DNA from: Pseudomonadota bacterium
GTDB lineage: Bacteria > Bdellovibrionota > Bdellovibrionia > Bdellovibrionales > SG-bin7
Direction of reading: 5' to 3'
Assembly: GCA_034439715.1 (NCBI GenBank)
Contig: JAWXAY010000003.1
Location: forward strand, 1 to 25,715
Length of the DNA: 25,715 nt
How positions within the stretch are numbered: position 1 is the stretch's first letter; every line of letters starts with the position of its first letter. The notes beneath the pieces are model-generated. The model saw only the letters and a program-made list of their open reading frames with translations. It was not told the origin of the DNA and ran no database searches. Position numbers and translations under genes: made by a program. This document shows positions 6,028-25,715 of this stretch, piece by piece.

Positions 6028-6801
6028 TTATTTAATAATATCCTTAACCGCCGTTTTTATCTTTTCAGGTAAAATACAAATCTTACCATTCCCAATTTTA
6101 GCAATTGCCAAACCGACATCTTTATCGCTAGTTACAATTGCATCAAATTTTGAGCACAAAAACATATTAACGATCATTGCATCTGAGCTGGATAACCCTT
6201 GGCTTTCCATAATCTTAATTGCATCTGCCCAGTCTGGAGCCTTGTCTAGATGCTTCGTTGTATCTTCGTTTTGCGTACTAAGTATATTTAAACCCAGCTC
6301 ATCCTCTGCATCTGTCCAGACCCCCGTTAACTTGTTTCCTACGCGATTTTCACAAAGCTCAGTCCACAAATCTTTTTTTTCAAATTCTATCTGCAACATC
6401 TCGATTTTATATTCTTTTAGCTCAGCCTCACCTAAACGAATAGGTGGTTTTAACTCTCTTTTGTTCTTGTTACTTTTCGCTCTCAGGGAGCCAAGTTTAT
6501 TTGAAAACTCAATGGGCAAGAGATTTTTATCTACTAAAGATTCCAAATCAAGCAGAGATTCCGTAAAGATAATTCTTCTGTGAATCTCAAGGAACTCCAT
6601 TTTAACATTGGAATTATAATAGAGAGGAATTTTATTTTCAAAAACCATATCTAAGAATTCAATCGTTGGCTCATAAAACGAATCAGAATCATAGGTGGCA
6701 GAGATTAAAACATTGGTATCTACAACCAAACCGCTTTTTAGATTCGATCGTTCTTCCAGTAACGTCAGTAAATCACTATACCCCCAAACATTCGACATCA
6801 A
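6028..6801 (-). CDS. PIN-domain nuclease (large, 257 aa)
   Basis: VVDTNVLI, conserved E, SSDAMI, IVTSDKD acidic PIN residues. Confidence 0.85.
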   Translation of the reverse strand: MMSNVWGYSDLLTLLEERSNLKSGLVVDTNVLISATYDSDSFYEPTIEFLDMVFENKIPLYYNSNVKMEFLEIHRRIIFTESLLDLESLVDKNLLPIEFSNKLGSLRAKSNKNKRELKPPIRLGEAELKEYKIEMLQIEFEKKDLWTELCENRVGNKLTGVWTDAEDELGLNILSTQNEDTTKHLDKAPDWADAIKIMESQGLSSSDAMIVNMFLCSKFDAIVTSDKDVGLAIAKIGNGKICILPEKIKTAVKDIIK

Positions 6802-6983
6802 ATATCCAGATCAGATTTTGGTTTAGCCGACTTCTTGTTGGGAACTGATTTGGGACTCTGGTTGGCCTTCTCAATAATATCAAAAATATTTTTAGAGAGC
6901 GGTTCCCTTCGCATGGCTGCAATCTTTTGAGCAACGCGTTTTGCTCCGCCCTTTTTGCCTATCTTAGGTTTTTGGTCTGCCAT
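6798..6983 (-). CDS. Small basic protein, candidate antitoxin/partner of PIN
   Basis: 61 aa, AGGAG RBS, 4-nt overlap with the PIN gene. Confidence 0.55.
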   Translation of the reverse strand: MADQKPKIGKKGGAKRVAQKIAAMRREPLSKNIFDIIEKANQSPKSVPNKKSAKPKSDLDI

Positions 6984-7048
6984 TTTAAAACTCCTTGTTA
7001 CCTAATCAATATACCATAAAATCCATGACGCCAAACATACTGAATTTA

Positions 7049-8341
7049 CTATGTATTTTTAAGCAAGACGTCCACCGAATAGGACTCTGACCTAGGATAT
7101 TTTTTTATCACTACACATTGCCCGACTTCAAGAGATTTAATCATGTTTGGGTGAATGTTAAATTCCTCAGTTTCCCTTGATGAATTGTCTCCAGTCGCAA
7201 CATCCCACCACAGTATCCGCTTTGTTCGTAATGTCTTTTTCCATACGGTCCTTGTCCCTGCAATCCCCGATATTATCTCTGCACTCTCGGGGCGCTTTTG
7301 TAAGAATGCATAGAGGGTTGAAGTGTTTCCCATAAGCCTTCCGGCAAATTCAGGACTGATACGAATTAGATCAGACAGCTCCTGATGTGCCACTACTACA
7401 CCAATTTTAGAACTTCGTGCCCGATCTAAAAAGCCAATAAAATCTTCTTGGGCAAGGTCTGCGAACTCATCGATGATGACAGTAAAGGGTTTGCGTAACT
7501 CTTTCGGGATTTCGGAGTCGATCCTTGCGGATGTAGATTTCAGGTCTTGAAGGATAAACTTTCCTATTGCCTTGGAGCTCTCTCCGTACCGCCTTGAGTC
7601 TAAAAAAGCGAATACAATTTTACCTTCGGTAGCTGCTCTAAATAAATCAATGGAATCTTCGGAGCCAGCAATCTTATCTCCAAAGTCAGATAATACAAGT
7701 GACTCTAATTGTGTGCGAAGCCCCTGAAGAGAGCGAAAGTTTTGTTCATCTTTTATAAACCTTAGGGCTTCATCAAAAATCTTCGAAGTACTTTGATCAG
7801 CAATCTCTTTTAGCCATACCTTAAAGAAGTCAGCTGATTTTGTCCCTTCAAGTATTACCTCCAAATCAAAGGGCACATTCTTATTATCTCTAAGCCAACA
7901 AAGTCCTATTAGAAGCTTCAACAGAAAACTTGCCGATTGATTCTTGTAGTACTCCTCACTCCAGCAAAGGGACAGCATTAACCTGTCCCGGAGCTGGGTG
8001 GCGGTCCCGCCACTTACTAAGTTGTACTTTGAAGATGGCACATCCTGATTTAAGGAAAACACTCTTAAATCTTCCTCGCGATTAGCTTTTTGAACTTCGT
8101 CCTTTAGTTCGCGAAGCATTTCACGTTCACCCTTTAAATCAATAAACATTATTCCAAGCCCATTTCGAATGCGATCCCGTAAAATATGCATCAGCAGGAC
8201 TGTCTTTCCAAAACCACTGGCGCCCACTATGTGCACATGATGATTAAGTTGTGAGTCTGTGAGCCTTTCAAAACCTAAAAGTTTATTCTTTTTTTTCCCA
8301 AGTAAGATTCCTTCCTTATTTCCAAAAGAAGTTCCCAGCAT
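7049..8341 (-). CDS. TraD/VirD4-like type IV coupling ATPase lacking TM anchor (copy A)
   Basis: Walker A GASGFGKT, FIDLKG, Walker B IIDEFA, RARS..VVVAHQ. Confidence 0.85.
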   Translation of the reverse strand: MLGTSFGNKEGILLGKKKNKLLGFERLTDSQLNHHVHIVGASGFGKTVLLMHILRDRIRNGLGIMFIDLKGEREMLRELKDEVQKANREEDLRVFSLNQDVPSSKYNLVSGGTATQLRDRLMLSLCWSEEYYKNQSASFLLKLLIGLCWLRDNKNVPFDLEVILEGTKSADFFKVWLKEIADQSTSKIFDEALRFIKDEQNFRSLQGLRTQLESLVLSDFGDKIAGSEDSIDLFRAATEGKIVFAFLDSRRYGESSKAIGKFILQDLKSTSARIDSEIPKELRKPFTVIIDEFADLAQEDFIGFLDRARSSKIGVVVAHQELSDLIRISPEFAGRLMGNTSTLYAFLQKRPESAEIISGIAGTRTVWKKTLRTKRILWWDVATGDNSSRETEEFNIHPNMIKSLEVGQCVVIKKYPRSESYSVDVLLKNT

Positions 8342-8342
8342 T

Positions 8343-9112
8343 TTACACCTCCGTCTTTTCTAAAAAGAAATCGGGAGCCATTTCAATTTTAAACAAATCT
8401 CCATATGGCTGGGCCTCTGATCTAATATTTTTATAAACGATATCTTTGGTGCAGACAAAGTGAACTTGGTTTGCGGTGGGAACGGTACTTTTAGAATACT
8501 TAATTAGGTCCACATAGCCTTTTATTTTTCTCGGTACCGAGCTTTCGCCTTTGCCGCAATTTCAAACTCAAACGCTATTTTTTTACCATCCGAAAGTATA
8601 TAGAGACCGTCAGGACGAAGCTCTTTTGAAAATTGCTCTTGGTACTCATTATTTTCGGATAAGTGCTTTTCTGAAATCCAACAAACACCTAGATTTTGAG
8701 ATTCAATTACCATGCGTGAAATTAAAACTTGTCTGTCGTGATCAAACGTAAAGAAATCTGTTTCACGAACGGGCCTACAGTAAAATCTAAAGGGTTCAAT
8801 TGCGGATACCACAGCGAAGCCCGCGTCTGAAACTGCATAATACCGTCGAATTTCAGAAAAGGTGCGAAGGCGTAAAAGAAAACCAGCCTTTTCTAATTGT
8901 AACAGGCGCTTTCTAGCCCAAAGAACACTTACTGATTTGCGACCCGAACGAGTGATCTTAAAAAATTTCTGGTGTATTTCATCTACTGAGACAAACTTCA
9001 TTTCTAAAATAAAACTGAGAACCTCGACGTCACGACTGGTTACTGCAATCTCAGATTTAAAATCACTTTCAAATCCCGCCATCGGAATCTTTTCTTTCAT
9101 AGCTACATACAT
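8343..9112 (-). pseudogene. Replic_Relax/MOB_C-like relaxase (copy A), frameshifted
   Basis: wHTH plus HD...PDG...AFEFE nuclease motif; homology to copy B continues in another frame after the A5 run at 8525-8529 until TAA at 8345-8343. Confidence 0.8.
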
Positions 9113-9164
9113 ATCTATTCCTCCTATTTATAATCCTGTCCTCATGCTTACTTTCCTTACTTCA

Positions 9165-9253
9165 TTCCGGTTGTGGGAAGCTTTAGGCCCCTGACCACCT
9201 TCAATCGTAGATTGGGGGTGGTCAGGAGCCGTCCAAAGCAGGCGCAACCGGAA
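9165..9253. other. Long hairpin, oriT candidate (copy A)
   Basis: Inner 48 nt (9184-9231) match copy B at 44/48; outer stem TTCCGGTTG/CAACCGGAA. Confidence 0.65.
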
Positions 9254-9355
9254 CCGCGAGATTTTTTGGCCACTTATGAATGCTTCACTGTGACCAAATA
9301 ACCTATTTCAAGAGATGACCCAGAATCTGAGTGTGGAGCTGTCTTGGTTAACCCC

Positions 9356-9452
9356 GTCAGCCAAGCGTCAGCCAAAGTCAGCCAAACTGTAGTGACTTCG
9401 AGTGACCTCGTGTGACCTTCAAGGTCACATGAAGAGAGATAACCTATTGAAA
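9356..9452. repeat. att-arm repeats (copy A): 3x GTCAGCCAA, 3x GTGACYT, IHF-like site
   Basis: 9-mers at 9356/9367/9377; GTGAC at 9392/9402/9412; TAACCTATTGAAA at 9440. Confidence 0.75.
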
Positions 9453-9507: not shown

Positions 9508-9519
9508 AAAATGGGGTGA
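9508..9519 (-). other. Putative att core (tRNA-His 3'-end-like TCACCCCATTTT)
   Basis: Identical 12-mer at 24491-24502 in the equivalent position. Confidence 0.65.
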
Positions 9520-9639
9520 TAGTAGCTCGCCCCAGAAAATTCACCAACTTAGGACTTAAGTTGACATCGAGAAAGCTAATCTGCAAGTTTTTTTCCATTT
9601 CAGAACCAATATTTCTCACTTTAAAGTCTCCGTTAATAA

Positions 9640-10815
9640 CTAGTCGCGACTTGGAACGTACTTTTTCTGCATTCTAAAGTCCGTAAGGTTTGCGACCTTC
9701 ACTTCTTGTCGACTGGGAGCAACAAAGCTTAAGCCTTCTGTCGCCCCTCTCACATCAATACCCGCTAATCGAATATACCTTGTCATAACCTTCTCATCCG
9801 TCCAACCGCAGATCTTCTTCACAATAGGGCTTGTGACCCCCGCATTTAGTAAATGCGTTGCAAAGCAAGCTCTAAGAGCGTGAAAGTTTACAGAGGTAAT
9901 ACCGATGCCGCTACAAAATCCGCGAAGTACCCTAGCTGCATCACCACGCCTCCACTGATTTATTCGTGGAAGGACGTGCGCATCTTTGGGAGCAATGGCT
10001 CTGCGTTCGATTAAATACGCCTCTAATTCTTGGTTAATTGGAATCTTCCTCCAGTAACCTGCCTTAGTGGATTTAATTATATCCATGCGTCCGTTATAGG
10101 ATTTTGAACAAGTAATCATCTTACCTTCAAAATCTATGTCGTTCCATAAAAGCGCATAGAGCTCACCACTTCGCATTCCCGTGTGCAGAGCCATAAACCA
10201 AATTGGGAACCAGGCATGATCCATCTCCCTTGCCGCATCCAATAACTTTTGAATTTCGGTAAGAGACAAAATCAAAGGTGGTTTCTCGTCATTGACTCGG
10301 CCCAAAACAATTCCTTCTGCCGGACTATTTCGAACATTTAAAACCGTTCCGTCTTCAATTCCCCACTTAAAAACAGTGTTGATCGCAGACCTTACGGCTT
10401 TCAATCTGCTTCGTGAATATCCTTGATTGACCATTTCTTGCAGAAGTTTTCTCACGTCGCCCGGCATAACTTCGTTACAAAGTTTTTTGTCCCATGGTTT
10501 GGTAAATCGCCTTAATGTGCCGATTGTCTCCCAAATTGTCGAACGCAAAATATGTTTAGACCTAAAGTCATCGCCTCGATTCACGAGTTCATACTCTTCT
10601 AAAAGATCGCCCCAGGGAAGGCCTGACCCCTCTCGCCTGGCGACCTCAGCGGCGCAGTATTGAAGCGCTTCCTTTTCAAAGATTTGGGCTTCACGCATAC
10701 TAGTAATAAAACTTTGTTTGCGAGAAACCTTTATCTTTCTTTTGATTCGACTTCGTGAACTAACAGTAACTACGAAGTACTTCGTACCATTGATTACAAC
10801 TTTTTTAATTCCCAT
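9640..10815 (-). CDS. Tyrosine recombinase/integrase (A)
   Basis: TGMRSGE, FHALR, CGW and catalytic Y in RYIRL; N-terminal arm-binding-like region. Confidence 0.95.
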   Translation of the reverse strand: MGIKKVVINGTKYFVVTVSSRSRIKRKIKVSRKQSFITSMREAQIFEKEALQYCAAEVARREGSGLPWGDLLEEYELVNRGDDFRSKHILRSTIWETIGTLRRFTKPWDKKLCNEVMPGDVRKLLQEMVNQGYSRSRLKAVRSAINTVFKWGIEDGTVLNVRNSPAEGIVLGRVNDEKPPLILSLTEIQKLLDAAREMDHAWFPIWFMALHTGMRSGELYALLWNDIDFEGKMITCSKSYNGRMDIIKSTKAGYWRKIPINQELEAYLIERRAIAPKDAHVLPRINQWRRGDAARVLRGFCSGIGITSVNFHALRACFATHLLNAGVTSPIVKKICGWTDEKVMTRYIRLAGIDVRGATEGLSFVAPSRQEVKVANLTDFRMQKKYVPSRD

Positions 10816-11123
10816 CTTTTTCTCCCTCTTGGTTGTGGAACGTTAATTCCAGAGTGAGACTCTACAGGCCCGTGTCCTGTGTGAGATCTTTCGATGAGTT
10901 GATCCAGAAGCTCGCGGTCAAAGTAAAGGCGTCCACAAAATTTATGGGCCGCCAATTTACCTCTTTGGTAAAGTTTTTTTACCGCCTCGCGAGTTGAGCC
11001 TAAGTACAAAGCCACTTCATCAGTTCTTAGCCATCTCTTAATTTTCAAAGAACTATGTTTCAGCTGAATTTCGCGAAAAGGATCTTCGCCTAATAAAGCT
11101 GAAGCATTACTTAATGTATTCAT
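10794..11123 (-). CDS. Excisionase-like HTH protein
   Basis: WLRTDEVALYLG...KL.AHK..GRLYFDRELLD; RBS-supported ATG at 11123; overlaps the int start. Confidence 0.85.
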   Translation of the reverse strand: MNTLSNASALLGEDPFREIQLKHSSLKIKRWLRTDEVALYLGSTREAVKKLYQRGKLAAHKFCGRLYFDRELLDQLIERSHTGHGPVESHSGINVPQPRGRKRWELKKL

Positions 11124-11143
11124 AACAGCCCCCTCCGGTCTGA

Positions 11144-11506
11144 TCAACTGACAACCTGGTTATTAAATTCACTTTCCTTAATTTCACCGCGCAAAAGCTT
11201 GCCAACAAATTCATCAAAAGATAACTTACCGTTTCTCTTTGCATAAGACTCAAAAGCAATATTGAGCCTATCCATTTCTGAATATGTTTTTTCCTGAAGC
11301 TTTTTAATATGTTCGTCGGTAATTAGGTTTAAACCAAGAGAGATAATCTCTCGGTCCATTACCTTACGCCCGTAACCTTTTTGATTTATCTTGTCGCGAA
11401 GCAAATAGAGCTTATTAATAGTGACAGGATCTAATTTTTTAGATGCTGCCTGCTCCTTTTTATCACTCCTTTTTTTATCAATTACTTTACTTATTGCCAC
11501 TTCCAC
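11144..11506 (-). CDS. Hypothetical basic protein, first gene of the xis-int operon (probable DNA-binding regulator)
   Basis: GTG start with AGGAGG at 11512-11517; Lys-rich; co-oriented with xis/int. Confidence 0.65.
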   Translation of the reverse strand: MEVAISKVIDKKRSDKKEQAASKKLDPVTINKLYLLRDKINQKGYGRKVMDREIISLGLNLITDEHIKKLQEKTYSEMDRLNIAFESYAKRNGKLSFDEFVGKLLRGEIKESEFNNQVVS

Positions 11507-11612
11507 TTCTTCCTCCTTTATTTAAAATGAATGGGGGATTTTCACCTCCCCCTTATTCATTTCGCCGATTTTAGTTAAACTTTAAGACCCGGTAATAAAA
11601 ATTTTTTATTTG

Positions 11613-11726
11613 TTACGAATAAGTAAAAATATGACTAATTAGTAACACTCATACGAATTAGTAAACCTGTTGCGAATATGTAAAAACAATGCGTTAAAGT
11701 AAAAAAACGACTAATTCGTAAAGCCA
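11613..11726. repeat. Six tandem 19-bp units with palindromic core TTACKAATTMGTAA
   Basis: GTAA recurs at 11623, 11642, 11661, 11680, 11699 and 11718. Confidence 0.85.
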
Positions 11727-11837
11727 TTTAGACAAAGTCTATTAGAATTTTCACAAAAACTACCTCCTTTGCCATTTAATTCGCTCTTGCAACCCTAACG
11801 AATAATCAGAATCGATATAATCACTTTTTTCACATTG

Positions 11838-11910
11838 TTTCTAAATAGGAATACAAACCCTAATTAGGAACACAGAACCTAATTCGATGTGAAAGTTGCT
11901 AATTAGGAAA
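11838..11910. repeat. Second array, four units with core CTAATTAGGAA
   Basis: CTAA at 11841, 11860, 11879 and 11899 (period 19, 19, 20). Confidence 0.7.
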
Positions 11911-12046
11911 AGAATTTATCGAATAACCGCCTCTAGGACTTGGTTACGTTCAAGAATCGTTAAATTTGTTGAGTGTCACCGAGCTAGAATCGTAACTTGG
12001 AACCTGATCCGGTGTGGTTTTCGATAGGAATTTTGGGAATTTTTTG

Positions 12047-12073
12047 AAAATGGCGGCCACGAAATGGCCACCA
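12047..12073 (-). terminator. Rho-independent terminator of the RHS locus
   Basis: TGGTGGCCA-TTTCG-TGGCCGCCA-TTTT immediately after the stop at 12078. Confidence 0.75.
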
Positions 12074-12077
12074 AAAC

Positions 12078-12605
12078 CTATTTTTTGGTCTCTAAAGGGA
12101 TTAAAAAATCTTTCAACTGGCGATCAGAGCGTTTTAAACCGCCAACAATCAAAGTGAGCTTTTGAAGATCGGGTTTGCTCATAATATGTAGCGGTGGCAT
12201 CAGAGGAGTTGGGTTGTAGTTAAAAACAAGTGACTTGGTTTCACCCGGTCCAATTTCGACAGAATCAGCTAAACTCACTTTCTTAAAATCCTGTCCTTCT
12301 TTAACTTGCATAGACTTCAATTCCATAGTTTGGTTTTTCGTGGTGCTTTTGAGTAAGACTTTTTCTGGGGCAATGACTAGCTTTTTGGAAGAGAGATTGT
12401 TTATATTGAGCCAAGCAGTCATGTTATAGTTAAACAATGAAACCCGTCCGCTAAGCTCAACCTCTTCACCTTTGTCCTTTTTTATGAACGACGTCTGCTC
12501 ATTTGCCGCTGGAAAGGCCGGATCTCTGTAAATCGAAAGAGTATCACAGCCCATTAAATTGAATACGAATACAAAAAAAGTAAACCTTCCAATAACTTTT
12601 ACCAT
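12078..12605 (-). CDS. Lipoprotein, candidate immunity protein for the orphan RHS tip
   Basis: Lipobox LMGC; overlaps the RHS stop. Confidence 0.7.
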   Translation of the reverse strand: MVKVIGRFTFFVFVFNLMGCDTLSIYRDPAFPAANEQTSFIKKDKGEEVELSGRVSLFNYNMTAWLNINNLSSKKLVIAPEKVLLKSTTKNQTMELKSMQVKEGQDFKKVSLADSVEIGPGETKSLVFNYNPTPLMPPLHIMSKPDLQKLTLIVGGLKRSDRQLKDFLIPLETKK

Positions 12606-14170
12606 GTGCTACCTAACCAATCTGCCGTTGCTTCCCACCATTGTCCCGCACTTGTAAAACCAAGAGCTCCCAGTCCTATGTAAGCTTCGGCACCTTGTGG
12701 TCCCGCTGCACTTAGAGCCATGAACTGCATAGTATGACCCAAAGAGTGACGTAATAAATCTTGGTAACCTCCTCCAAAGTATGCACTAGTTCCGATGGTC
12801 AAGTCACCACCTCCAAAACCTAAAATATTTGTTTTAGAGCCCACCATGCCCTGGTACCAGCTATTTGCCCCGACCTCTTGGATACCGCCACCCCAGAAGT
12901 GACCTCCTATAGCCGAAAGACCTAGAAATCCCGCTGATACGTTGAATATCGATTCCGCATTTTTCCAAAAGTCTCCCCCTTTGCCCGATATTCCACTGTA
13001 AATAGCCGATGCCGCAAGAGCCCCTGCGAATGTTGCTCCTACTGCAGCTAATGCTCCTATGGCACTGCCACTGGTTATAGCTAAAGAACTAAAGGCAAAT
13101 AGTGCTGCAAATAAGAACCTTCCAGTCGGGTCTGTAAACATAAGCGGATTATTTGAAACATATATGTATTTATTAATCACCGTCGACGGCATACTAAGCT
13201 TACCCGGCTCTGGATCTTGTTGTAAAAACCTTCCTAAACTCGAATCATAAAATCTTGCTCTATAATAATAAAGGCCACTCTCTTTATCTAACTCTCTCCC
13301 CGTAAATGTATAGCTTGTATTTAGCACCGGATTAGCAACGACACTTACACCAGCTCCGTTGACTATATCTCTGATATCGCCAAACGCAGAATACGCATAC
13401 CTCTGCACAACATTGCCACCACCGTCTATAATGTCTGTTGTAGTGCCGATACTGTCTTTGAGGAAGAAATAAGTCCCACTGCTTTGAGCTAATTTTTGCG
13501 CAACTCCCGCCGAACTTATATTTACCGAAAGCACGTCATCGGTTCTAAGAGTAGAATGTGTGTACCTTGCTAAGAGCGAATTGGTACCATCGAATTCCAG
13601 CAATACCTCTTGACCGTCGTACGCATACTTCCTCGTAAACGTTTTGCCTGTGTCCAAAAGAAAATTCTGATCGACAACCTTCTTTTCAATTCTTCTAGCC
13701 AATGCATCGTAGGTGTAATCAATAGATTTATGAGCCTGAGAACTAAGCGAAGCTGAATACTCTATTTTTATTAACTGATTTTCTGACGAATAAGAGTACT
13801 TAGTTACTTCTCCCGTTCCCTTTGCAATTTTTAAGATAAGATTTCCGTTATTGTCATAGGTGTAATTGTTTTTATAATCCTCACTCAATAATTGCCCCGT
13901 CAGATCATAAACGTAATTCCCATTTTGATCAGTTATGCGATTGCCAAGCGAGTCATACGTATAGGTTTCAGCACCACTGATGGGTCTGTTTGCACTACTT
14001 AAATAACTATTCAAATCATAGGCAAAACTGTGAGCACCCAAACTCGAACTGATATCTGTCACGTGTCCGAGTTGATTTCTCGAATAGTTAAAAAATGATT
14101 TCGTCACTGCATCCGATTTATGGGTAATGCTTTCAATAAAATTCCCACTGCCAAAAGCAAAGTCGTACAT
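12599..14170 (-). CDS. Orphan RHS/YD-repeat fragment with variant C-terminus
   Basis: YD repeats, FTGRELDKESGLYYYRARFYD...GRFLQQDP...DPTG; collinear with the C-terminal part of 14583..18032. Confidence 0.9.
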   Translation of the reverse strand: MYDFAFGSGNFIESITHKSDAVTKSFFNYSRNQLGHVTDISSSLGAHSFAYDLNSYLSSANRPISGAETYTYDSLGNRITDQNGNYVYDLTGQLLSEDYKNNYTYDNNGNLILKIAKGTGEVTKYSYSSENQLIKIEYSASLSSQAHKSIDYTYDALARRIEKKVVDQNFLLDTGKTFTRKYAYDGQEVLLEFDGTNSLLARYTHSTLRTDDVLSVNISSAGVAQKLAQSSGTYFFLKDSIGTTTDIIDGGGNVVQRYAYSAFGDIRDIVNGAGVSVVANPVLNTSYTFTGRELDKESGLYYYRARFYDSSLGRFLQQDPEPGKLSMPSTVINKYIYVSNNPLMFTDPTGRFLFAALFAFSSLAITSGSAIGALAAVGATFAGALAASAIYSGISGKGGDFWKNAESIFNVSAGFLGLSAIGGHFWGGGIQEVGANSWYQGMVGSKTNILGFGGGDLTIGTSAYFGGGYQDLLRHSLGHTMQFMALSAAGPQGAEAYIGLGALGFTSAGQWWEATADWLGSTW

Positions 14171-14197
14171 TAATGATAACGCCTTTTCTAAAAAATT

Positions 14198-18097: not shown

Positions 18098-20941
18098 CTA
18101 CATGTTTGTTTCAGCGGGTAACTCATGGTCATTTGGAAGAGTTAATGCTACCGGCTCACTGAACTTCAATCCTGACGGCTCAAGAGAAACAACAGTTGTC
18201 GGAGTAGCAAACTCCGGATGAGGTACGGTGGTTTTCTCAGCGGAAACAATTCCTATACTAATTGATCCAGAATCTGTTCCATCAGGAAACTGAACTACGC
18301 CAGAAGGAATATTTATAGAAACACCAGGCGCATGTGGACTTGTGACTATCGCACTGGCTCCGGCAGCAATTACTGTTTCAGTCCCATCGATATACTGGGG
18401 TGCTAAATAAATAGGTCTTGCTAAAACATTACTTTGCGAAAGACCTATACTGATGGGCACAGTTACTTTGTTATACCTTTTCTGAGTTCCAATTACGGCC
18501 ACCGGAATAGTCGAAGGATCAATTAATATTGTTTGATCGCCAGTTGAAATGGGGCCTGGAAACACAAACATTCCGCCGGCATCCGTAGTTACCGATTGAG
18601 TTAAGCCTATCATACTTACTATTACACCAGGCAACGGATTATCATCAGTGTCTCTCACACTGCCCGATAATTTTGTGTCGACGATGAAAGACAAATTCAT
18701 TGATGCAGATTCACTTGTTGAGTTATCAGTAACCGTAAGCGTAGCCAGATTAAAAAAATCAGTTTCAATTGAAAAGCTACCCTCTGAGCTCGAGGTTGTA
18801 ACAAATGATTTAAAAAGTCCCGTTTGAACCTTCACTTCAATGCCAGCGCGCACGGCGCCAGCTCCACCTAATATAGTTAATTTGTTTCCTGAAGAACCTG
18901 GACCCACCATTACAAGTTCAGGAATCAGCAGTCTAGGCTGAACATCCACATTTACTGCCAAACTAGTCGTGTTTCCAATTAAGTCTGTTGCAATAACATT
19001 AACCGTATTTGGCCCCTCAACAAGTGCCGTCACAAATCCGCTAAAACTAGTTTTTGCAGAATTTAGAGTTAAAGCCACACCATTTGCAGTCACTGAAGAA
19101 AGTGGCTCACTACTTGTGCCAGCAATATCTATTTTGAGACTTCTAATAACCTCATCTGGTTGAGGCTTTGTTAAACTAATAATTGGCGCCACAGAATCAA
19201 GCGTAATATTGCTTAAATTAATTATTTCGGAATCATTTCCAGCTCTGTCTTCAGACATCACGTGAAAATTGTTTAAACCTTCAATCAATTGAGTATCAAA
19301 AACAAATGACGGCGCTGCAGTTTGAAATACCACTGAGCCATTGTGAACAATTTTTGTCAAAATTGGCGATGAGTCGACAACATCTACTCTTATTTGATAA
19401 CTTGAAATTTTTGTTGTGAAATTACTTTGAGCAATAACAGCAATTGTAGGATCTAATTGATCAACTGTTAAGTTGAAATTAATGTTTTGATTTGCGAGGT
19501 TTCCAGCAAGATCCACCCCTTCAAACGCTAAAGGTATTTCGCCAGGCGCTAAAAAGAATACATTTCCAAAGAAACTTTTCTTATCTGGAGAAAGGTTTAA
19601 AGCTACACCGTGGGCTTTTGCACTTTGAAGCGCCTCATTAGAAAAGCCAGACACCTCTATCACGTTTGAGTTTTTATAAATTACTTCACCCTCAAAAGGA
19701 CTAAAACCAGACAAAACTGGTAAAATGGTATCTAAAAAGACTGCCCTTAAAATTTCACTACTATTTTGTGCACTATCTGTACTTTTTATTGAAATAGTGT
19801 TGCTTCCCTCTAGTAGCGAAGCACTCGCAACAAAACTACTTCCAGATATTGAGGATTGAATAATTCCATTTACTTTTACTTCACTTGTTACACTCGTTGC
19901 ATCAGCTATAACTACGTTAAACGAAAAGTTTGTCTGATTGGTTATTTGATTTTCATCAACCTGTGCAGTGATAATGGGCGCAGTTTTATCTATCGTTAAA
20001 TTTACTGGATCGGCAACGCCCTTATTCTGGAACTGATCCGAAATGCTCGCCTCTATTTTATTTACACCTTCTTGAAAATTTGCAGTAAGCTCAGACGCCT
20101 CATCACTTATTGAAAAAAAATGCTTTGATTCAACTCCGTTAATTAGTATCGATAAGCTACTTAACACCAATGTCTGATCATTGTACTCAACTCTAACTGT
20201 TTGGCTTGATTGGTTGGTGATTTGCGAGGCTGGGCTCACAATGGCAATTGTGGGATCACCACTGTCCTCCACCATTCCGTCTATTCTGATTACTGGTTTT
20301 AATATGTACTTACCATTTCCAGTTTGGTGAATACTTTTGTCGGGGTTAAACCTTAGAGTTAGCGAGATAATTTGGCCTGTCACAACTGTGAAAGTACCGT
20401 TAAGCTTAAGACCTGATCTGTGTGATGACGGGATTTTTATCGCTACTGTTTTGCCATCTACAATGCCGGTCACGTCCTCTTTTAGTTTTAATCTTATTTT
20501 GTTATAAGTACCGGCAGGCAGTCTTACATTGCCAAGTACCGACACTGCATTTGTGCTTAAATTTATCAAATCTACAGTCTGCTCAGTGGTGGTAACGGTC
20601 TGCCACTCGTACTGCTCTGAATAAACCGACACTTCCGTAATAGTCATTGATATCGAAGTAAATGTCCCCGAAGAGCTGTCTTTAGGCTTTTGAAAAGTAG
20701 ACGTGGATAAAGCCGGAGCCACTTCTCCAGAGGCTACAACTTTTAACCAACCTTTTGGTGCATCAACTATTGGCCCATTTATAGGCTGTGCGGGATTTGT
20801 TCCAGTTTCGGGATTTGCGGGCGCAGGCACGACCCCTGCGCTTGAGTTCGAAGTGGACTCTTTACATCCAGCTAAGACAATTAGAGAAAAGACCACATAT
20901 AATAGACATCTGATCGTAACATTCATTTTTGCTGCCGCCAT
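18098..20941 (-). CDS. Large lipoprotein with DUF4382-like, Ig-like, carboxypeptidase-regulatory-like and ZU5-like domains (N-terminal part of the teneurin-like protein)
   Basis: Lipobox LAGC; LPAGTYNKIRL...GNGKYILKPVI; repeated EG.N.I...D...N Ig units; ends abruptly after SLEPSGLKFSEPVALTLP. Confidence 0.8.
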   Translation of the reverse strand: MAAAKMNVTIRCLLYVVFSLIVLAGCKESTSNSSAGVVPAPANPETGTNPAQPINGPIVDAPKGWLKVVASGEVAPALSTSTFQKPKDSSSGTFTSISMTITEVSVYSEQYEWQTVTTTEQTVDLINLSTNAVSVLGNVRLPAGTYNKIRLKLKEDVTGIVDGKTVAIKIPSSHRSGLKLNGTFTVVTGQIISLTLRFNPDKSIHQTGNGKYILKPVIRIDGMVEDSGDPTIAIVSPASQITNQSSQTVRVEYNDQTLVLSSLSILINGVESKHFFSISDEASELTANFQEGVNKIEASISDQFQNKGVADPVNLTIDKTAPIITAQVDENQITNQTNFSFNVVIADATSVTSEVKVNGIIQSSISGSSFVASASLLEGSNTISIKSTDSAQNSSEILRAVFLDTILPVLSGFSPFEGEVIYKNSNVIEVSGFSNEALQSAKAHGVALNLSPDKKSFFGNVFFLAPGEIPLAFEGVDLAGNLANQNINFNLTVDQLDPTIAVIAQSNFTTKISSYQIRVDVVDSSPILTKIVHNGSVVFQTAAPSFVFDTQLIEGLNNFHVMSEDRAGNDSEIINLSNITLDSVAPIISLTKPQPDEVIRSLKIDIAGTSSEPLSSVTANGVALTLNSAKTSFSGFVTALVEGPNTVNVIATDLIGNTTSLAVNVDVQPRLLIPELVMVGPGSSGNKLTILGGAGAVRAGIEVKVQTGLFKSFVTTSSSEGSFSIETDFFNLATLTVTDNSTSESASMNLSFIVDTKLSGSVRDTDDNPLPGVIVSMIGLTQSVTTDAGGMFVFPGPISTGDQTILIDPSTIPVAVIGTQKRYNKVTVPISIGLSQSNVLARPIYLAPQYIDGTETVIAAGASAIVTSPHAPGVSINIPSGVVQFPDGTDSGSISIGIVSAEKTTVPHPEFATPTTVVSLEPSGLKFSEPVALTLPNDHELPAETNM

Positions 20942-21235
20942 ATACGTACCTCTTCAGCATTTAATAAATTCTATTTAAATATATCGGCGTCTTAATATAT
21001 GACTTGATAGCAAAAAGTTAGACGGTTTGGTTCTCCATTTGAGATTGGCTTTAAATACCGATGGGTTAGTTATTTGTCTCAATAAATTATTTTTGTTGGC
21101 ACACCTTTGCTTTTTTGTAATGTCTATTTTTAAGATTTAACTATTTTTTGTTTGGTAGAAACAGTTCATTTGGTTTGAATTTATTTACAATAGGTGAGCC
21201 ACAAGGGCTAATCCCGCGATGGCAGAAGTCTGCAG

Positions 21236-21652
21236 TTACTCTTCAATTAAAACTTTATGAGTTTCAAACCAATTGATTAATTCTTCCTTACCAATTTTAC
21301 TGGCAGCGCAGTTATCGATGATTTCAGCTAGTTCGTTGACGTTTTTCTTTTCATCTAGGGGATAGCGAAGGTCCATGCCGTGCTGATTTAGAAATGAAAT
21401 TGCTGCCAACGCGCCAGTTCGTTTATTGCCATCTACAAATGCATGACTTTTTACTAGGTAAAAACATAGCGCCGCTGCAACTTTTGCAAGACCGCCGTGA
21501 ATAAACGGATACGTGCCAGGATAAAATGCGGTACTAATGGCACTTTCAATTTTTCCAACATCATAGCAGTGGTGAGGATTGCCGCCCATTTCACAAACGT
21601 ACATATTCACAGCCAACACTGCGTCGGCTGTGGGGATAAATATAACTCTCAC
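21236..21652 (-). CDS. Doc/Fic-family toxin
   Basis: HAFVDGNKRTG Doc-type motif. Confidence 0.92.
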   Translation of the reverse strand: MRVIFIPTADAVLAVNMYVCEMGGNPHHCYDVGKIESAISTAFYPGTYPFIHGGLAKVAAALCFYLVKSHAFVDGNKRTGALAAISFLNQHGMDLRYPLDEKKNVNELAEIIDNCAASKIGKEELINWFETHKVLIEE

Positions 21653-21876
21653 TTCAACTTATCCATTGCGTTTTTATGTTTTTTAAACGCCTTTTTTGCC
21701 GTCGCCAAGAAGTCCTTGGTATCCACTGGTACAAGCCTTATTGTTTGCGGCTCAGTAATGAATTTCTCCACAGCCATATTTACAAGTTGAGCAAACTTTA
21801 TCCCGTTAACGTCAAGGTACTCTTCAACCTTCTTTTCAAGATCATCATCAAAGCGCACTGTTTTTGGAACTCCCAT
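21649..21876 (-). CDS. RHH-like antitoxin
   Basis: KTVRFDDDL strand-helix start; 4-nt overlap with doc; AGGAGG RBS. Confidence 0.75.
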   Translation of the reverse strand: MGVPKTVRFDDDLEKKVEEYLDVNGIKFAQLVNMAVEKFITEPQTIRLVPVDTKDFLATAKKAFKKHKNAMDKLK

Positions 21877-21973
21877 AGAGCCACCTCCTGTGTATTAAAT
21901 ATACTACATATGAATACATTTGGCAATACAAGGAGTAACATATTGTTATTGTTATTGTATTCAGACACCTACA

Positions 21974-23275
21974 TTAGCATTTTACTCTCACAGAATATGA
22001 CAACGCTCGTGGGTATTTTTTAATACAAACACACTCACCCACCTCTAAACTTTTTATTCTATTCGGGTGAATATTAAATTCCTCCACTTCCCTGAGCGAG
22101 CTCTCTCCGCTACGCACATCAAAGAGCCACCATCTTTCGGCTTTTACTGTTTTTTTCCAAACTGTCCGCGTCCCCGCCATGCCCGAAATCATCTCTGCAC
22201 TCTCTGGCCCTTTTTGCAAAAATGCATACATCGTAGAAGTATTACCACTGAGCCTTCTGGCAAACTCAGGACTTATTCGCTGCAGATCACTCAGCTCCTG
22301 ATGAGCTACCACCACCGAAAACCGGCTACTTCGTGCTCGGTCCAAAAATCCGATAAAATCCTCTTGGGCAAGGTCTGCAAACTCATCGATGATTACCGAA
22401 AATGATTTTCGTTTTTCAGACGTGATCTCGGCATCGACTCTTGCTGATGTTGCTTTAAGATCCTGAATGATAAATTTACCCACGGCCTTGGCCGATTCGC
22501 CATACCTTCTAGTATCAAGAAATATAAAAGTAATTTTTGAGTCATTTACCGACTTAAAGAGATCAATGCCATCGGTATTATCTGAAAGCAGTCCGCCAAA
22601 GTCAGAGAATACTAACGACTCAATTTGAGCGCGAAGGCCTTGCAGAGATTTAAAATTTTCTTTGTCTTCTAAGAATACAACCGAGTCCTCAAAAAGGAAC
22701 TTAATCCGCTCCTCAGCTAATGGCACCTGACTGCCAAGGCCTAAAAGTTTGTCTACCTTTAAACAGCATTCTAAAATCAAGCTCAAAGTTACCGAAAGTT
22801 TCTTGTTGTCTCTTAGCCAACATAAACCGATTAATAGCTTTAACAGAAAACTCGCACTTTGGTTTTTATAATATTCTTCTGACCAAATGAGCGACAGCAT
22901 TAACCTGTCGCGAATTTGATTTGCTGTGCCCGTCCCAACTAGATTGTAAGCTTTAGAAATAGTAGCATCCGCCAAAGAAAAAATCTGAAGATCCTTTTCG
23001 CGATCACATTCACGTGCAAATCCAGAAAACTTTTTTAAAGTCTCACTATCGCCCTTTAAGTCTATATAAAGTAATCCTTTACCCTGATGAATGCGTTCGT
23101 GAATGATATGCGAAAGTAATACAGTCTTGCCATAACCGCTTGCGCCCACCACATGAACGTGATGATTAAGCTGTCCATCGGTTAAAACCTCCCTTTTAAA
23201 AAAATTTCCTTTAATCTTACCAAGAGTTATGCCCTCAGATTTTAGATTTGAATTCCTATTTAAAAAACTTAGCAT
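21974..23275 (-). CDS. TraD/VirD4-like type IV coupling ATPase lacking TM anchor (copy B)
   Basis: GASGYGKT; IIDEFADLAQEDFIGFLDRARSS identical to copy A. Confidence 0.85.
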   Translation of the reverse strand: MLSFLNRNSNLKSEGITLGKIKGNFFKREVLTDGQLNHHVHVVGASGYGKTVLLSHIIHERIHQGKGLLYIDLKGDSETLKKFSGFARECDREKDLQIFSLADATISKAYNLVGTGTANQIRDRLMLSLIWSEEYYKNQSASFLLKLLIGLCWLRDNKKLSVTLSLILECCLKVDKLLGLGSQVPLAEERIKFLFEDSVVFLEDKENFKSLQGLRAQIESLVFSDFGGLLSDNTDGIDLFKSVNDSKITFIFLDTRRYGESAKAVGKFIIQDLKATSARVDAEITSEKRKSFSVIIDEFADLAQEDFIGFLDRARSSRFSVVVAHQELSDLQRISPEFARRLSGNTSTMYAFLQKGPESAEMISGMAGTRTVWKKTVKAERWWLFDVRSGESSLREVEEFNIHPNRIKSLEVGECVCIKKYPRALSYSVRVKC

Positions 23276-24081
23276 TTTACACCTCCGTATTCGCCCAAGT
23301 AACCATCAGCTAATTCAATTTTAAAAAGATCCGAGTAAATTCCAGAAAAATGCTCAAGATGCCTTTGGGTCGTGGGACTCATAACTACGTAATGAACTCT
23401 AGTAAAGGCCGATGGGTCCTGCCGATGCTCGCGAATCCAAGCAACGTATCTTTTAATTTTTTCTTGGTAGCGAGACTTAGCCTTTACAGCGATTTCAAAT
23501 TCTAAAGCGGTCTTTGAACCGTCGCGATGGGTGATAACTGCATCCGGCGAATAGGCTTCGCCTAAATGTGAAAGGATACCCGTCTGAACCTTGATGGTGC
23601 GGTCTGAAAGCCAGTGAACGACTTCGCCTTTTTCTTCAAGGACAAGCCTTAATTTCAGTAAAAGATAATCGTGTACAATAGTTCGGCTATCAATTGAGCC
23701 AGAAGGTCGCGCGAATTCGTGACCTGGGTATATTTCCCTTAACGCTGAAAGCGCCCGTCGAGTTGCAAAAAATAACCTTTTAGACTCGCTAAAGGCTTTT
23801 GTAGATTTTAGAAAGTCACTTCCGGCTAACTGCACAAGCCTTTTCTTAGCATAATGAAATCCCATTTCTTTTCCCTGAGAATCAATTGTCTTAAAAAATT
23901 TTCGGTATACTTCATCGACAGAAGCAAACTTCATTTCTAGAATAAAATTTAGAACATCAAAATCGCGCTGAGATAAAACGATTCTCTTTTGTTCTTTCTC
24001 TTTTAACTTTCTCTTAACCTCACTTATCTCCTCAAACGGAAATTCCACTTGCGAAATATTACTAAGCATATTCATATCCAT
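23269..24081 (-). CDS. Replic_Relax/MOB_C-like relaxase (copy B)
   Basis: RDFDVLNFILEMKF wHTH; HD...PDA...ALEFE..K...Y..K motif; overlaps the coupling-protein start. Confidence 0.8.
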   Translation of the reverse strand: MDMNMLSNISQVEFPFEEISEVKRKLKEKEQKRIVLSQRDFDVLNFILEMKFASVDEVYRKFFKTIDSQGKEMGFHYAKKRLVQLAGSDFLKSTKAFSESKRLFFATRRALSALREIYPGHEFARPSGSIDSRTIVHDYLLLKLRLVLEEKGEVVHWLSDRTIKVQTGILSHLGEAYSPDAVITHRDGSKTALEFEIAVKAKSRYQEKIKRYVAWIREHRQDPSAFTRVHYVVMSPTTQRHLEHFSGIYSDLFKIELADGYLGEYGGVKC

Positions 24082-24117
24082 CCTCTTCCCCCTTTTTTGA
24101 TTAATATAAAAAAAAAA

Positions 24118-24272
24118 TTACCGCCCTCTAGGTTCATAACTCCTGGTTTCTTACTTTTTGTGCTCGCTAGGCTCCTGACCACCCTCAATCGTAGAGTGGG
24201 GGTGGTTAGGAGCCGGAAAAAGCGAGCACCGGTCCTAAAAAGTAAGCAAAGCGGACACTTAGAGGGCGGTAA
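24118..24272. other. About 155-nt nested inverted repeat, oriT candidate (copy B)
   Basis: TTACCGCCCTCTA/TAGAGGGCGGTAA, CTTACTTTTT/AAAAAGTAAG and GTGCTCGCT/AGCGAGCAC surround the conserved 48-nt core (24168-24215). Confidence 0.7.
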
Positions 24273-24341
24273 ATGTCCCCAAAATGTCCGCTGACTGAGA
24301 TGACTTTGCTGATGAGTGGTTTCGTATATATGCGTTTTCAG

Positions 24342-24435
24342 GTTGGGCCACAGTTGGGCCAAGTTGGGCCACGGAAGTCCCGTGGTGTCCCTTTGAGTCC
24401 CTGATACGCAAATAGCCTTGAACAACCCATTGATA
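24342..24435. repeat. att-arm repeats (copy B): 3x GTTGGGCCA, 3x GTCCC, IHF site
   Basis: 9-mers at 24342/24353/24363; GTCCC at 24377/24387/24397; CAACCCATTGATA at 24423 matches YAANNNNTTGATW. Confidence 0.75.
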
Positions 24436-24490
24436 TTGGGTTCTGAGGGAATTCGAAAACTTAGATTTTTAGTGGATTCTCGATGCGCGA

Positions 24491-24508
24491 AAAATGGGGT
24501 GACTGACG
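24491..24508 (-). other. Putative att core (tRNA-His 3'-end-like CGTCAGTCACCCCA)
   Basis: Reads as T-arm 3' side, acceptor strand, C discriminator and CCA; shares a 12-mer with 9508-9519. Confidence 0.65.
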
Positions 24509-24575
24509 CCCTATGCGTAAGTCACCGTAATTACTCAGAATCGTAGTCTGCTTGTCATCATCTGTCATCTTTGTT

Positions 24576-25676
24576 TTACCGCTTTCCGAAATTTACTGAA
24601 ATGACGTTCTCCTGATCTGCTTCTTTTGGCGTCGAATAGCCCAAAGCCTCAGTTGCTCCCTTAATATCGACCCCAGCCAGTCTTAAATAAACGTCCGTTG
24701 TTTCCATTTTCTTATGACCAACGATGGCCATGACTTTTACTAACGGGACGCCTTGAGCCAGCATATTGGTAATAAATGTTGCCCTTAAATCGTGAAACTT
24801 GATCGAAGTTATTCCAGTCGCTAGACAGAAATCCCGAATTACCTTTGCCTGATCGCCATGCGTCCATTCCATTAACCTAGGCAGCACGAATTCACTTGGA
24901 TCTTTCTTTGCCCTAAGTTCACTTAATAGGTCTTTCAAGTTTCCGCTTATAGGAACAACTCGCCAATCGCCGGTTTTCAATTCGTGATACTCGTCCTTAT
25001 TGGTCCATTGTTTATTGACCGAAATAATACCTGCATCAGAATCAATGTCCGTCCACTTAAGAGCATACATTTCGCCAGATCTCATTCCAGTCATCAGTGC
25101 AAAAGCCCAAACATAATAGAAACGATGGTTCACGCTATTTGCCGACTTCAAAAGTATATCAACCTCGCGGGCTGATAAAACCTTCTGCATTGTTTGAGGA
25201 ACCTTAATCGAGATTCCTCTAGTCGGGTTTTTCGTAACTAAACCATCATCCATAGCTGCCTGAAACATCCTGCGAAGCATTTTCAAAATATTCTTTTGAG
25301 AAATGCTTCCTAACTTTATACTGGATTTCTGCAACAATTCATAAACTTCATCAACAGTAATTTGCTCCATTGATTTATTAAGCCAGTCTTTGGGAATCCA
25401 TTTTTTAAGATAGCCATCGTAATTAGCAACGGTTGAATTTTTATAATTCAGCCGAATTCGCTTCAAGAACTCTTCGTGCCAATTCTCCCAAGTCCAAGAT
25501 GGCTTTTGGTCAGCGATACTTCTAAGTTCCGATTTGAATTTAAATTCAACTTCTTTGGCTTCTCGATCAGATGTAATTCCACGTTTACGCTTTGCAATTA
25601 ATTTCTTATTTTGATCGCGTTCGGCTACATAAACTTCATAGAGCTTTTGTTTTCCATTCATATAAGATTTGATCAT
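24576..25676 (-). CDS. Tyrosine recombinase/integrase (B)
   Basis: TGMRSGE, FHDLR, VGH and catalytic Y in VYLRL; C-terminal RLAG.D..GATE.L shared with integrase A. Confidence 0.95.
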   Translation of the reverse strand: MIKSYMNGKQKLYEVYVAERDQNKKLIAKRKRGITSDREAKEVEFKFKSELRSIADQKPSWTWENWHEEFLKRIRLNYKNSTVANYDGYLKKWIPKDWLNKSMEQITVDEVYELLQKSSIKLGSISQKNILKMLRRMFQAAMDDGLVTKNPTRGISIKVPQTMQKVLSAREVDILLKSANSVNHRFYYVWAFALMTGMRSGEMYALKWTDIDSDAGIISVNKQWTNKDEYHELKTGDWRVVPISGNLKDLLSELRAKKDPSEFVLPRLMEWTHGDQAKVIRDFCLATGITSIKFHDLRATFITNMLAQGVPLVKVMAIVGHKKMETTDVYLRLAGVDIKGATEALGYSTPKEADQENVISVNFGKR

Positions 25677-25681
25677 CTCTT

Positions 25682-25715
25682 TTATCCCTTCCGAGAAAAA
25701 AGAGCGTTCACATCA
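25682..25715 (-). CDS. 3' end of an upstream gene (position expected for xis), partial
   Basis: Open frame ...DVNALFSRKG-TAA ending 5 nt before the int ATG; identity inferred from synteny only. Confidence 0.3.
   Translation of the reverse strand, partial: DVNALFSRKG

Follow-up and report, generated by a model that had tools for sequence, protein, structure and literature searches.

How many mobile elements make up a row of genes in which an integrase, a relaxase-like protein and a coupling ATPase follow one another twice, and where does each element begin? We asked this of contig JAWXAY010000003.1 (C3) of the assembly GCA_034439715.1, from an uncultured, Bdellovibrio-like predator of the Bdellovibrionales (SG-bin7, Bdellovibrionota). 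The window, as we call the whole stretch that was analysed, is this entire contig of 25,715 bases, one of the 111 contigs of a 3.26-Mb assembly. Very probably, three tandem elements lie at the single tRNA-His gene of this genome: an integrative and conjugative element (ICE), named E1, a derivative lacking pore genes, named E2, and a remnant, named E3. They form a head-to-tail array, in which E2 is 15 kb long and has no transfer channel of its own, and E3 is decayed. All three would use the 3′ end of tRNA-His as their attachment (att) site, and the window would correspond to the far part of the array. The element genes all lie on the minus strand, and above 4 kb in the window nearly every long open reading frame (ORF) does so too. 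We number the elements in the sense of the tRNA, from high to low coordinates, which is opposite to the A/B labels of an earlier reading made from the letters of this DNA (the sequence-only reading). The att arm, hairpin, relaxase and coupling ATPase are called the 'head' of an element, and the excisionase–integrase (xis-int) end its 'tail'.

A duplicated gene order and its attachment site

Pfam searches with 20 ORFs of the window and a repeat scan bear out the earlier observation that the order integrase, 12-bp repeat, arm repeats, hairpin, relaxase-like gene, TraD/VirD4-like ATPase and toxin–antitoxin occurs twice. The two copies have diverged: the integrases are 33%, the relaxase-like proteins 38% and the ATPases 64% identical, and the hairpin regions are 88% identical over 56 nt. 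A toxin–antitoxin pair does stand in both copies, but the two are of unrelated types (Doc and PIN).

The 12-mer AAAATGGGGTGA is found at 24491-24502 and again at 9508-9519. The sequence-only reading took it for the 3′ end of a tRNA-His, and the predicted gene exists. ARAGORN finds no tRNA in the window and 42 in the genome, among them one tRNA-His, on contig C71, that ends ...CAGTCACCCCA (its longer 3′ end is given as CGTCAGTCACCCCA and CCCCGTCAGTCACCCCA). Junction 1 (24491-24508, minus strand), where the right end of E1 meets the left end of E2, shares 14 nt (24495-24508) with the tRNA-His 3′ end. Junction 2 (9508-9519, minus strand), where the right end of E2 meets the left end of E3, copies 8 nt of the tRNA end, TCACCCCA, plus the following T-run. 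The 3.26-Mb genome has 67 copies of the 8-mer TGGGGTGA on its two strands, so that about 0.5 copies are expected per window. The repeat is not explained by chance, and both copies hold the same place in the gene order. No further core copy (with two or fewer mismatches) is present left of 9508, and none of the core-like matches on C94 and other contigs lies beside an integrase.

The junctions are not confined to one assembly. The window sequence is listed in 11 public runs, none of them an RNA run and all available as assembled Logan contigs, four of which were compared with the window; such assembly drops rare forms. Junction 2 is bridged by contigs of two runs, and both junctions are bridged in more than one run.

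Relatives place the boundary between integrase and relaxase

The gene order might be read in a simpler way, with each integrase and the relaxase–ATPase pair downstream of it forming one unit, the repeat lying inside that unit and the window holding two copies of an integrase-first element. The order does recur twice in the window, and an integrase stands upstream of the relaxase in 4 of 30 public loci (all 30 are assigned to Bdellovibrio, Pseudobdellovibrionaceae, Bdellovibrionales or Bdellovibrionota); in two of the four (L036 and L047) the core lies between the two genes, as in the window. In 12 of the 30, however, a full tRNA-His is found within ~650 bp upstream of the relaxase. Five of the loci have too little upstream sequence, and several with ample flank show neither tRNA-His nor integrase; the ATPase is downstream in 22 and the hairpin is present in 21. 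Within the same order, the relaxase-family profile matches 22 of 61 genomes, this one included. Seven loci were taken from five relatives; in four of them the relaxase–ATPase pair is directly preceded by tRNA-His in the same orientation (two of these are on the same contigs as L032 and L043, which are counted among the 12). Of the other three, one has a tRNA-His 3′ fragment beside a tRNA-Met and two have neither. Since tRNA-His sits in the integrase's place in these relatives, the adjacent integrase and relaxase genes belong to different elements, and the boundary lies between them, as had been proposed.

The other end of the element is seen in the relatives as well. Orthologs of int2, the tyrosine integrase gene of E2 (9640-10815, minus strand; PF00589, 4e-19; catalytic residues present), are found in four of the five relatives searched, with 50-60% identity. 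In genome G052, the head and the int2 ortholog (60%) share a strand and a contig, with the ortholog 35 kb downstream; ~110 bp past it come the 12-bp tRNA-end repeat TCACCCCAATTT and then a chromosomal peptidase gene, with no relaxase. In G033, where the two likewise share strand and contig, the ortholog is 74 kb downstream of the head, and CACCCCATTTTTAGG comes after it. These layouts show that the head is the tRNA-proximal end and xis-int the distal end. The single-unit reading is contradicted both by this end of G052 and by int1, the other integrase gene of the window, which is preceded by an excisionase and secretion genes on contig C38 (see below); together with the tRNA-His found in place of an integrase in the 12 public and four relatives' loci, this leaves it a negligible chance. 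The complete att-delimited element proposed at 9508-24502 (E2, 15.0 kb) is thus supported by its two junctions and by the placement of head and tail in relatives.

The relatives also show what lies between head and tail. The E2 tail (9640-11509) is collinear with the integrase, excisionase and 116-aa genes of G052, at 60%, 52% and 50% identity. Its members are int2, xis2 (10794-11147, minus strand), a candidate HTH_17 excisionase gene (PF12728, 5.7e-8; 52% identical to the G052 counterpart), and orf120 (11144-11506, minus strand), a conserved tail gene without a Pfam match, whose G052 counterpart (50% identity) is the 116-aa gene before xis-int. Eight genes upstream of the G052 tail encode a TrbC pilin, a 96-aa protein, a 721-aa VirB4/TraC-like ATPase and five ORFs without a family match. 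G052, G033 and G047 each have a VirB4-like gene at a distance of 3.9-4.3 kb from their int2 ortholog, and in G014 one stands at the contig start. Because head and tail enclose type IV secretion system (T4SS) genes in these relatives, we are dealing with an ICE family of Bdellovibrionota, of which E2 is a deletion derivative. The earlier suggestion of a family of compact mobilizable elements is therefore not tenable. The compact pore module of the relatives may itself be incomplete.

Reduction may have gone further elsewhere. In the complete genome G058 (L017, 5960-9300), a hairpin, a relaxase, an ATPase and one small ORF make up a 3.3-kb unit flanked by a tRNA-His 3′ fragment on one side and a CACCCCAATTT repeat on the other, next to tRNA-Met; no int2 homolog is found in this genome at E ≤ 1e-10. 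A search for the far chromosomal flank of our array by way of the gene that follows the G052 element found no ortholog in this genome, only paralogs of 26% identity. In two loci of G052 (L019 and L020, on its contigs C1 and C11), two relaxase paralogs in tandem precede a single coupling ATPase, and there is no tRNA in the vicinity. The islands of G052 and G014 (L018, L022 and L026) carry an AcrB/CzcA-type pump, a cation-efflux protein, a P-type ATPase with an HMA domain and MerR-like regulators. Cargo thus varies by host, with metal handling and efflux in the relatives and an RHS system and a large surface protein here.

E1 is an ICE that continues on another contig

Being the whole contig, the window cannot be extended directly to the right, as had been proposed, but a 99-bp end overlap reaches contig C38. 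Over its last 99 bases, the window is reverse-complementary to the end of C38; this is one of 10 contig-end overlaps found in the assembly. The first 20 residues of int1 (24576-25676, minus strand; PF00589, 4e-24; catalytic R, H-x-x-R, H and Y aligned) are also encoded at the end of C38, and one Logan contig covers 15968 to the window end and then 2019 nt further. In the direction of the window, C38 has genes for a TrbC/VirB2 pilin, a DUF3487 protein, an 805-aa VirB4/TraC ATPase and a TrbI/VirB10 protein, then for an FtsK/SpoIIIE-type ATPase, three small proteins and an HTH_17 excisionase, and lastly the first codons of int1. Since int1 is preceded by an excisionase and T4SS genes, it closes an ICE, E1. 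The sequence-only reading had supposed that the element ending with this integrase is minimal; the T4SS genes just upstream of it on the overlapping contig refute this. The tyrosine recombinase catalytic residues (R, H-x-x-R, H/W and Y) can be aligned and are invariant in five integrases, including int1 and int2.

The left end of E1 would be on C71, the contig with the tRNA-His gene. The motif TGATGACA occurs three times on C71, 125 bp downstream of the tRNA-His end, and twice between the int1 stop and junction 1. The latter two copies are the GATGACA repeats in the right arm of E1 (24553-24569, minus strand), candidate arm-type sites of the integrase that share their motif with C71; at least two motif matches in the 73-nt right arm were obtained in 4 of 2000 shuffles. 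Contig-end overlaps tie the window to C38 only, with none for C71 or for the start of C38. A 15-nt inverted copy of the tRNA-His 3′ end is present on C71 at 1335-1349 (locus L002), ~200 bp downstream of the tRNA gene, and falls inside the presumed left arm of E1.

Four T4SS clusters exist in this genome, on C38, C7, C14 and C36. The clusters on C7, C14 and C36 are close relatives of one another, with membrane-anchored VirD4-type coupling proteins and their own xis-int. In hhalign, the relaxase profile matched a 268-aa protein of C7 with a probability of 71% (E 3.7e-5) and a 308-aa protein of C38 with a probability of 21% (E 0.001). This is a hint, too weak to support a claim, that the ICEs of this genome also use MOBC-like relaxases.

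The relaxase candidate and its anchorless coupling ATPase

The first gene in the head of E2 is rel2 (23269-24081, minus strand), a gene for a 270-aa relaxase candidate of the MOBC (Replic_Relax) type. The Replic_Relax label of the sequence-only reading finds no direct basis in Pfam, as neither rel2 nor the relaxase-like protein of E3 matches this family even at E ≤ 10, but the family link holds through NCBIfam and through relatives. The NCBIfam model NF041423, 'MobC family replication-relaxation protein', matches rel2 over its catalytic half with E 9.9e-13 and 47.9 bits, below its cut-off of 200. Rel2 has 17 close homologs, and a profile of rel2 with 15 homologs finds 961 representatives (E ≤ 0.001). 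Thirty-six of these relatives, a subset of 150 listed among the 961 matches, were scanned; 17 of the 36 match PF13814 (E ≤ 0.1), and 7 exceed its 25.3-bit cut-off. By these relatives and the NF041423 match, the rel2 sequence is homologous to the MOBC family.

The AlphaFold2 model of rel2 has a mean pLDDT of 80.5. MarR can be aligned to its residues 35-122 with a Z of 10.1 and an rmsd of 1.8 over 77 residues, and rel2 as modelled has an N-terminal winged helix-turn-helix. Foldseek gives weak matches of the C-terminal domain to SfsA, FokI, PspGI and BstEII (E 0.003-0.013); no match of the model to the PDB reaches E ≤ 0.001, and the relaxase-family profile has no match among PDB sequences at E ≤ 10. 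Six residues (H137, D138, D180, E194, E196 and K200) are invariant in 16 sequences of the relaxase family. PF13814 is equated with the MOBC relaxase superfamily in the available part of one paper (PMC5357655) and placed in the PD-(D/E)XK superfamily in that of another (PMC3424549). Rel2 is a candidate MOBC-type relaxase, putatively of nuclease fold, with site-specific nicking as its predicted activity.

The gene overlaps by 7 nt with that for T4CP2 (21974-23275, minus strand), a 433-aa coupling ATPase of the VirD4/TraD type without a membrane anchor. T4CP2 and its E3 counterpart T4CP3 score 39.7 and 38 bits with PF12696 (cut-off 22), and T4CP2 scores 26.4 bits with PF02534 (cut-off 20.1). They have the ATPase domains and the Walker A motif of VirD4/TraD proteins, starting at residue 44 in T4CP2 and at residue 40 in T4CP3, but lack the N-terminal transmembrane anchor. 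No hydrophobic segment is found in either (19-residue window, Kyte-Doolittle 1.6), nor in any of 31 family members; the ICE-type ATPase homologs on C7 and C36 (552-559 aa) have two. The family comprises at least 419 clusters, and those with names are all from Bdellovibrionota. A complex prediction for rel2 and T4CP2 scored 0.33, against 0.01 for the best control, with runs agreeing in at least 96% of contacts and a partner pLDDT of at least 79. The mark for this score is reached by 116 of 157 solved complexes and by 2 of 215 mismatched pairs; at scores of 0.60 or under, it is reached by 18 of the 157 solved complexes and by both of the passing mismatches. The prediction gives weak support to a pairing of rel2 with T4CP2.

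Arm repeats and a conserved hairpin in the head

Between junction 1 and rel2, the left arm of E2 contains what we take, by the IHF consensus, to be an IHF-like site, ATCAATGGGTTG (24423-24434, minus strand), at a position conserved in related loci. It is followed by direct repeats (24342-24401, minus strand): three copies of GGGAC at 24377-24401 and then three of TGGCCCAAC at 24342-24371, with a spacing of 10-11 bp. Most of 20 related junctions have the same layout after the tRNA end, namely an IHF-like site, three 5-6-mers with 10-bp spacing, three 8-9-mers with 10-11-bp spacing and, ~100 bp beyond the repeats, a hairpin. The repeat sequences vary among elements.

Two functions can be considered for these repeats. 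They might be the relaxase-binding site within an origin of transfer (oriT), read by the winged helix as in TraX of pAD1. TraX has an N-terminal winged helix and binds five direct repeats 70-120 bp from nic, according to the available part of its description (PMC12857230), and the repeats of the rel2 and rel3 elements differ, as do the relaxases (38% identical). E1, however, carries the same threefold repeat ~125 bp from the core without a relaxase gene beside it, and its motif recurs next to int1. Recurrence of the outer motif in the integrase-side arm was matched by 4 of 2000 shuffles for E1, by 9 of 2000 for G052, where the motif also lies beside the integrase, and by 86 of 2000 for G033, a weak case; E2 shows none. 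Since there are two sets of repeats, both readings could hold, one for each set. A relaxase-binding role for the triple repeats is rather unlikely in our judgement. The outer set, which in E1 keeps its distance from the core where no relaxase gene is present, probably consists of integrase arm sites, an assignment from sequence in which we have moderate confidence, and the inner set may work with the excisionase or the relaxase.

The hairpin of E2 (24145-24239, core 24170-24214, minus strand) is long and conserved, and it is our candidate oriT. Its fold as DNA has z-scores of -5.1 and -7.8; across both copies of the window the values range from -5.1 to -7.8, and the fold is stable on both strands. 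In 19 loci, compensatory changes are seen at 5 of 14 stem pairs, and 96.6% of the cells pair, compared with 84.9% after shuffling; none of 500 shuffles reached the observed score. In the loop, an asymmetric motif is conserved. A dimeric regulator of the relaxase–ATPase operon with the hairpin as its operator, or a structured RNA, would account for part of this, as the palindrome of a dimer-binding site should change symmetrically as well and the fold is stable on both strands. But the loop motif is asymmetric and conserved, a scan of the window against Rfam at gathering thresholds gave no match, and the hairpin is located upstream of the gene for a MOBC-type relaxase candidate. In the portion of a recent preprint available to us, the MOBC oriT is placed between the T4SS operon and the relaxase gene (10.64898/2026.01.13.699239). 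We regard an operator or RNA as improbable. By analogy with the TraX repeats and with this MOBC oriT upstream of the relaxase gene, the hairpin would be the oriT of E2.

E2 resembles a mobilizable element

E2 is bounded by direct repeats of the att site, the 12-mer, both copies of which match the tRNA-His end, and it has its own integrase and relaxase without mating-pore genes. It thus has the make-up of an integrative and mobilizable element (IME). The Pfam search of the 20 ORFs revealed no T4SS gene in the window, and in tblastn with T4SS proteins of C38 and C7 only the coupling ATPases were matched on C3. Transfer of E2, which lacks pore genes, would therefore need one of the four T4SS clusters of the genome, and because the T4SS of E1 is directly upstream of int1, a candidate helper adjoins E2. 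The earlier statement that T4SS genes are absent and a helper is needed thus stands for the window and for E2 but not for E1, which has a T4SS of its own. Among the ORFs scanned there is no capsid, terminase or replication gene, and a reading of E2 as a phage satellite was dropped.

Downstream of T4CP2 are genes for a Phd-like antitoxin (21649-21876, minus strand) and a Doc toxin (21236-21652, minus strand; Fic/DOC 1.7e-8). The 75-aa Phd-like partner has no significant family match. The cargo of E2 (12078-20941, minus strand) comprises a 947-aa surface protein with DUF4382 and Ig-like domains, a 1149-aa RHS protein, a DUF4156 lipoprotein, a 523-aa RHS fragment and a 175-aa ORF. Its RHS system (12078-18032) has the 1149-aa RHS protein and the DUF4156 lipoprotein, then the 523-aa fragment and the 175-aa ORF, an arrangement that resembles a main toxin accompanied by an orphan tip and an immunity gene. 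A stretch of 197 nt is doubled there at 70% identity (13116-13312 and 14944-15140).

E3 is a decayed remnant

E3 lies below 9519. The third element postulated by the sequence-only reading does have the genes of a head, but it is a decayed remnant rather than merely the head of an element: its relaxase gene is frameshifted, it is cut by an insertion sequence (IS), and the window holds neither an integrase nor a further junction for it. The left arm (9356-9451, minus strand) contains a presumed IHF-like site at 9440-9451, three copies of GTCAC at 9392-9416 and three of TTGGCTGAC at 9356-9385. Its hairpin, likewise a candidate oriT (9161-9255, core 9186-9230, minus strand; fold z -5.9 and -5.2), has all 14 counted stem pairs standard. 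In rel3 (8342-9112, minus strand), residues 34-208 and 200-264 of rel2 are matched in two frames, and near codon 196, within an A-rich run, a stop occurs and the frame shifts, with the same sequence in Logan contigs of two runs. T4CP3 (7049-8341, minus strand), an anchorless coupling ATPase of 430 aa, is open, 64% identical to T4CP2 and above the PF12696 cut-off. A 61-aa ORF and a PIN-domain protein (6028-6983, minus strand; PIN 5.3e-5, just above its cut-off) make up a VapBC-like pair.

The leftmost 6 kb of the window are a mosaic of accessory genes. An IS terminus (1-98, strand not assigned), of which 96-99 nt are identical to the ends of C10, C32, C76 and C80, closes the contig. A LysR gene truncated to its substrate-binding part (769-1251) adjoins a Gp49/HigB-like toxin (1452-1769) and an HTH_37 antitoxin (1782-2063) gene. 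A 30-nt direct repeat with 87% identity (3531-3560 and 3975-4004), which follows two small plus-strand ORFs, may represent repeated terminators or a duplicated cassette end.

State of E2 and a possible transfer route

Several observations weigh against our account of the array. Neither the excised circle nor an empty site is seen: a joint of ~9520 with ~24490 is not present in the Logan contigs of four runs, which as assembled contigs drop rare forms. The left-arm repeat TGGCCCAAC is missing from the right arm of E2 (no match with one mismatch or fewer), and therefore E2 may join a head and a tail of different descent. The ICE coupling proteins match T4CP2 at 27-28% identity at best. The hairpin of E2 has an A at a stem position that is G in the other 18 of 19 loci, rel2 matches no Pfam family and stays far below the NCBIfam cut-off, and C71 and C38 are linked by the shared TGATGACA motif, without an assembly joint. 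The sole joint reported for the region, 22396-25344, has sides of 20 nt and lies in a much deeper contig; we took it as foreign.

E2 might be an immobile fossil or chimera, its head and tail brought together from two elements by a deletion in which an IS may have had a part. The homology to the ICE of relatives ends at 11509, beside an AT-rich gap with an IS-terminus-like remnant (11922-11956, plus strand; 83% identical to the IS end at positions 72-106 of the window, with 30 nt matching the end of C61). The arm repeat that is absent on the right, the unique change at an otherwise invariant stem position of the hairpin and the plain decay of the neighbouring E3 are in line with this. On the other hand, rel2, T4CP2, xis2 and int2 are all open, the integrase has its catalytic residues, both junction cores are intact and the addiction module has been kept. 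A fossil is a serious possibility that we hold to be less probable than not.

Excision, nicking, coupling, choice of helper and present mobility of E2 are functions that we infer from sequence. If E2 is a functional derivative, Int2 and Xis2 would recombine junctions 1 and 2 and release E2 as a circle. Rel2 would bind and nick at the hairpin, and T4CP2 would pass the DNA to a borrowed T4SS, for which the genome has four clusters, one of them adjacent in E1. Int2 would then insert the circle into the tRNA-His gene of a recipient.

Relation to known systems and significance

Tandem integration at one att site and mobilizable elements with a MOBC relaxase and a VirD4 coupling protein are both known already, the former being treated in the available part of the preprint cited above (10.64898/2026.01.13.699239) and the latter in that of PMC5357655. 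The streptococcal IME_Class_8, as presented in that part of PMC5357655, unites a PF13814/MOBC relaxase, a VirD4-type coupling protein and a serine integrase. E2 is similar in pairing a MOBC-type relaxase candidate, a VirD4-type coupling protein and an integrase in a compact integrative module. Unlike IME_Class_8 as described there, with its serine integrase and canonical VirD4 protein, E2 has a tyrosine integrase with an excisionase, tRNA-His as target, an ATPase without a membrane segment, relaxase and integrase at opposite ends and a host in the Bdellovibrionota.

The modelled winged helix, a putative restriction-endonuclease-like domain and the direct repeats away from the presumed nick recall TraX of pAD1 and MobC of CloDF13, as these are portrayed in the available part of PMC12857230. 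Unlike these plasmid-borne proteins, rel2 is far from the curated models, and its branch is known from sequences and a model. CloDF13 carries its own coupling protein, MobB, beside MobC. As for the array, Pavlovic et al. reportedly described in 2004 tandem accretion at one att site for ICESt1/ICESt3 of Streptococcus thermophilus. As in that case, related elements are stacked here at one att site, with decayed members that lack transfer or recombination genes. The phylum, att site and gene families are different, and our stack mixes integrase lineages that are 33% identical.

Full-text literature searches found no description of this family, and no ICE or mobilizable element of Bdellovibrio with a defined att site. 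ICE-like elements at Bdellovibrio tRNA genes are merely suggested in the available part of one paper (PMC3539863). We tentatively propose, with somewhat less than even confidence, that the elements belong to a widespread, undescribed ICE family of the Bdellovibrionota. Its sole coupling protein would be a soluble, anchorless VirD4-like ATPase that is encoded with a MOBC relaxase at the tRNA-proximal end, with pore genes and xis-int at the distal end. Such ICEs would decay repeatedly to hitchers composed of oriT, relaxase and ATPase (down to ~3.3 kb), which stack up behind unrelated ICEs and, with a coupling protein of their own, use a foreign pore.

Gene exchange among predatory bacteria is little known. 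The present case poses the question of how a coupling ATPase without a membrane anchor reaches the secretion channel. The locus and its relatives give exact element ends and a candidate oriT with covariation support, and they provide a natural series from a full ICE through a pore-less derivative to a remnant.

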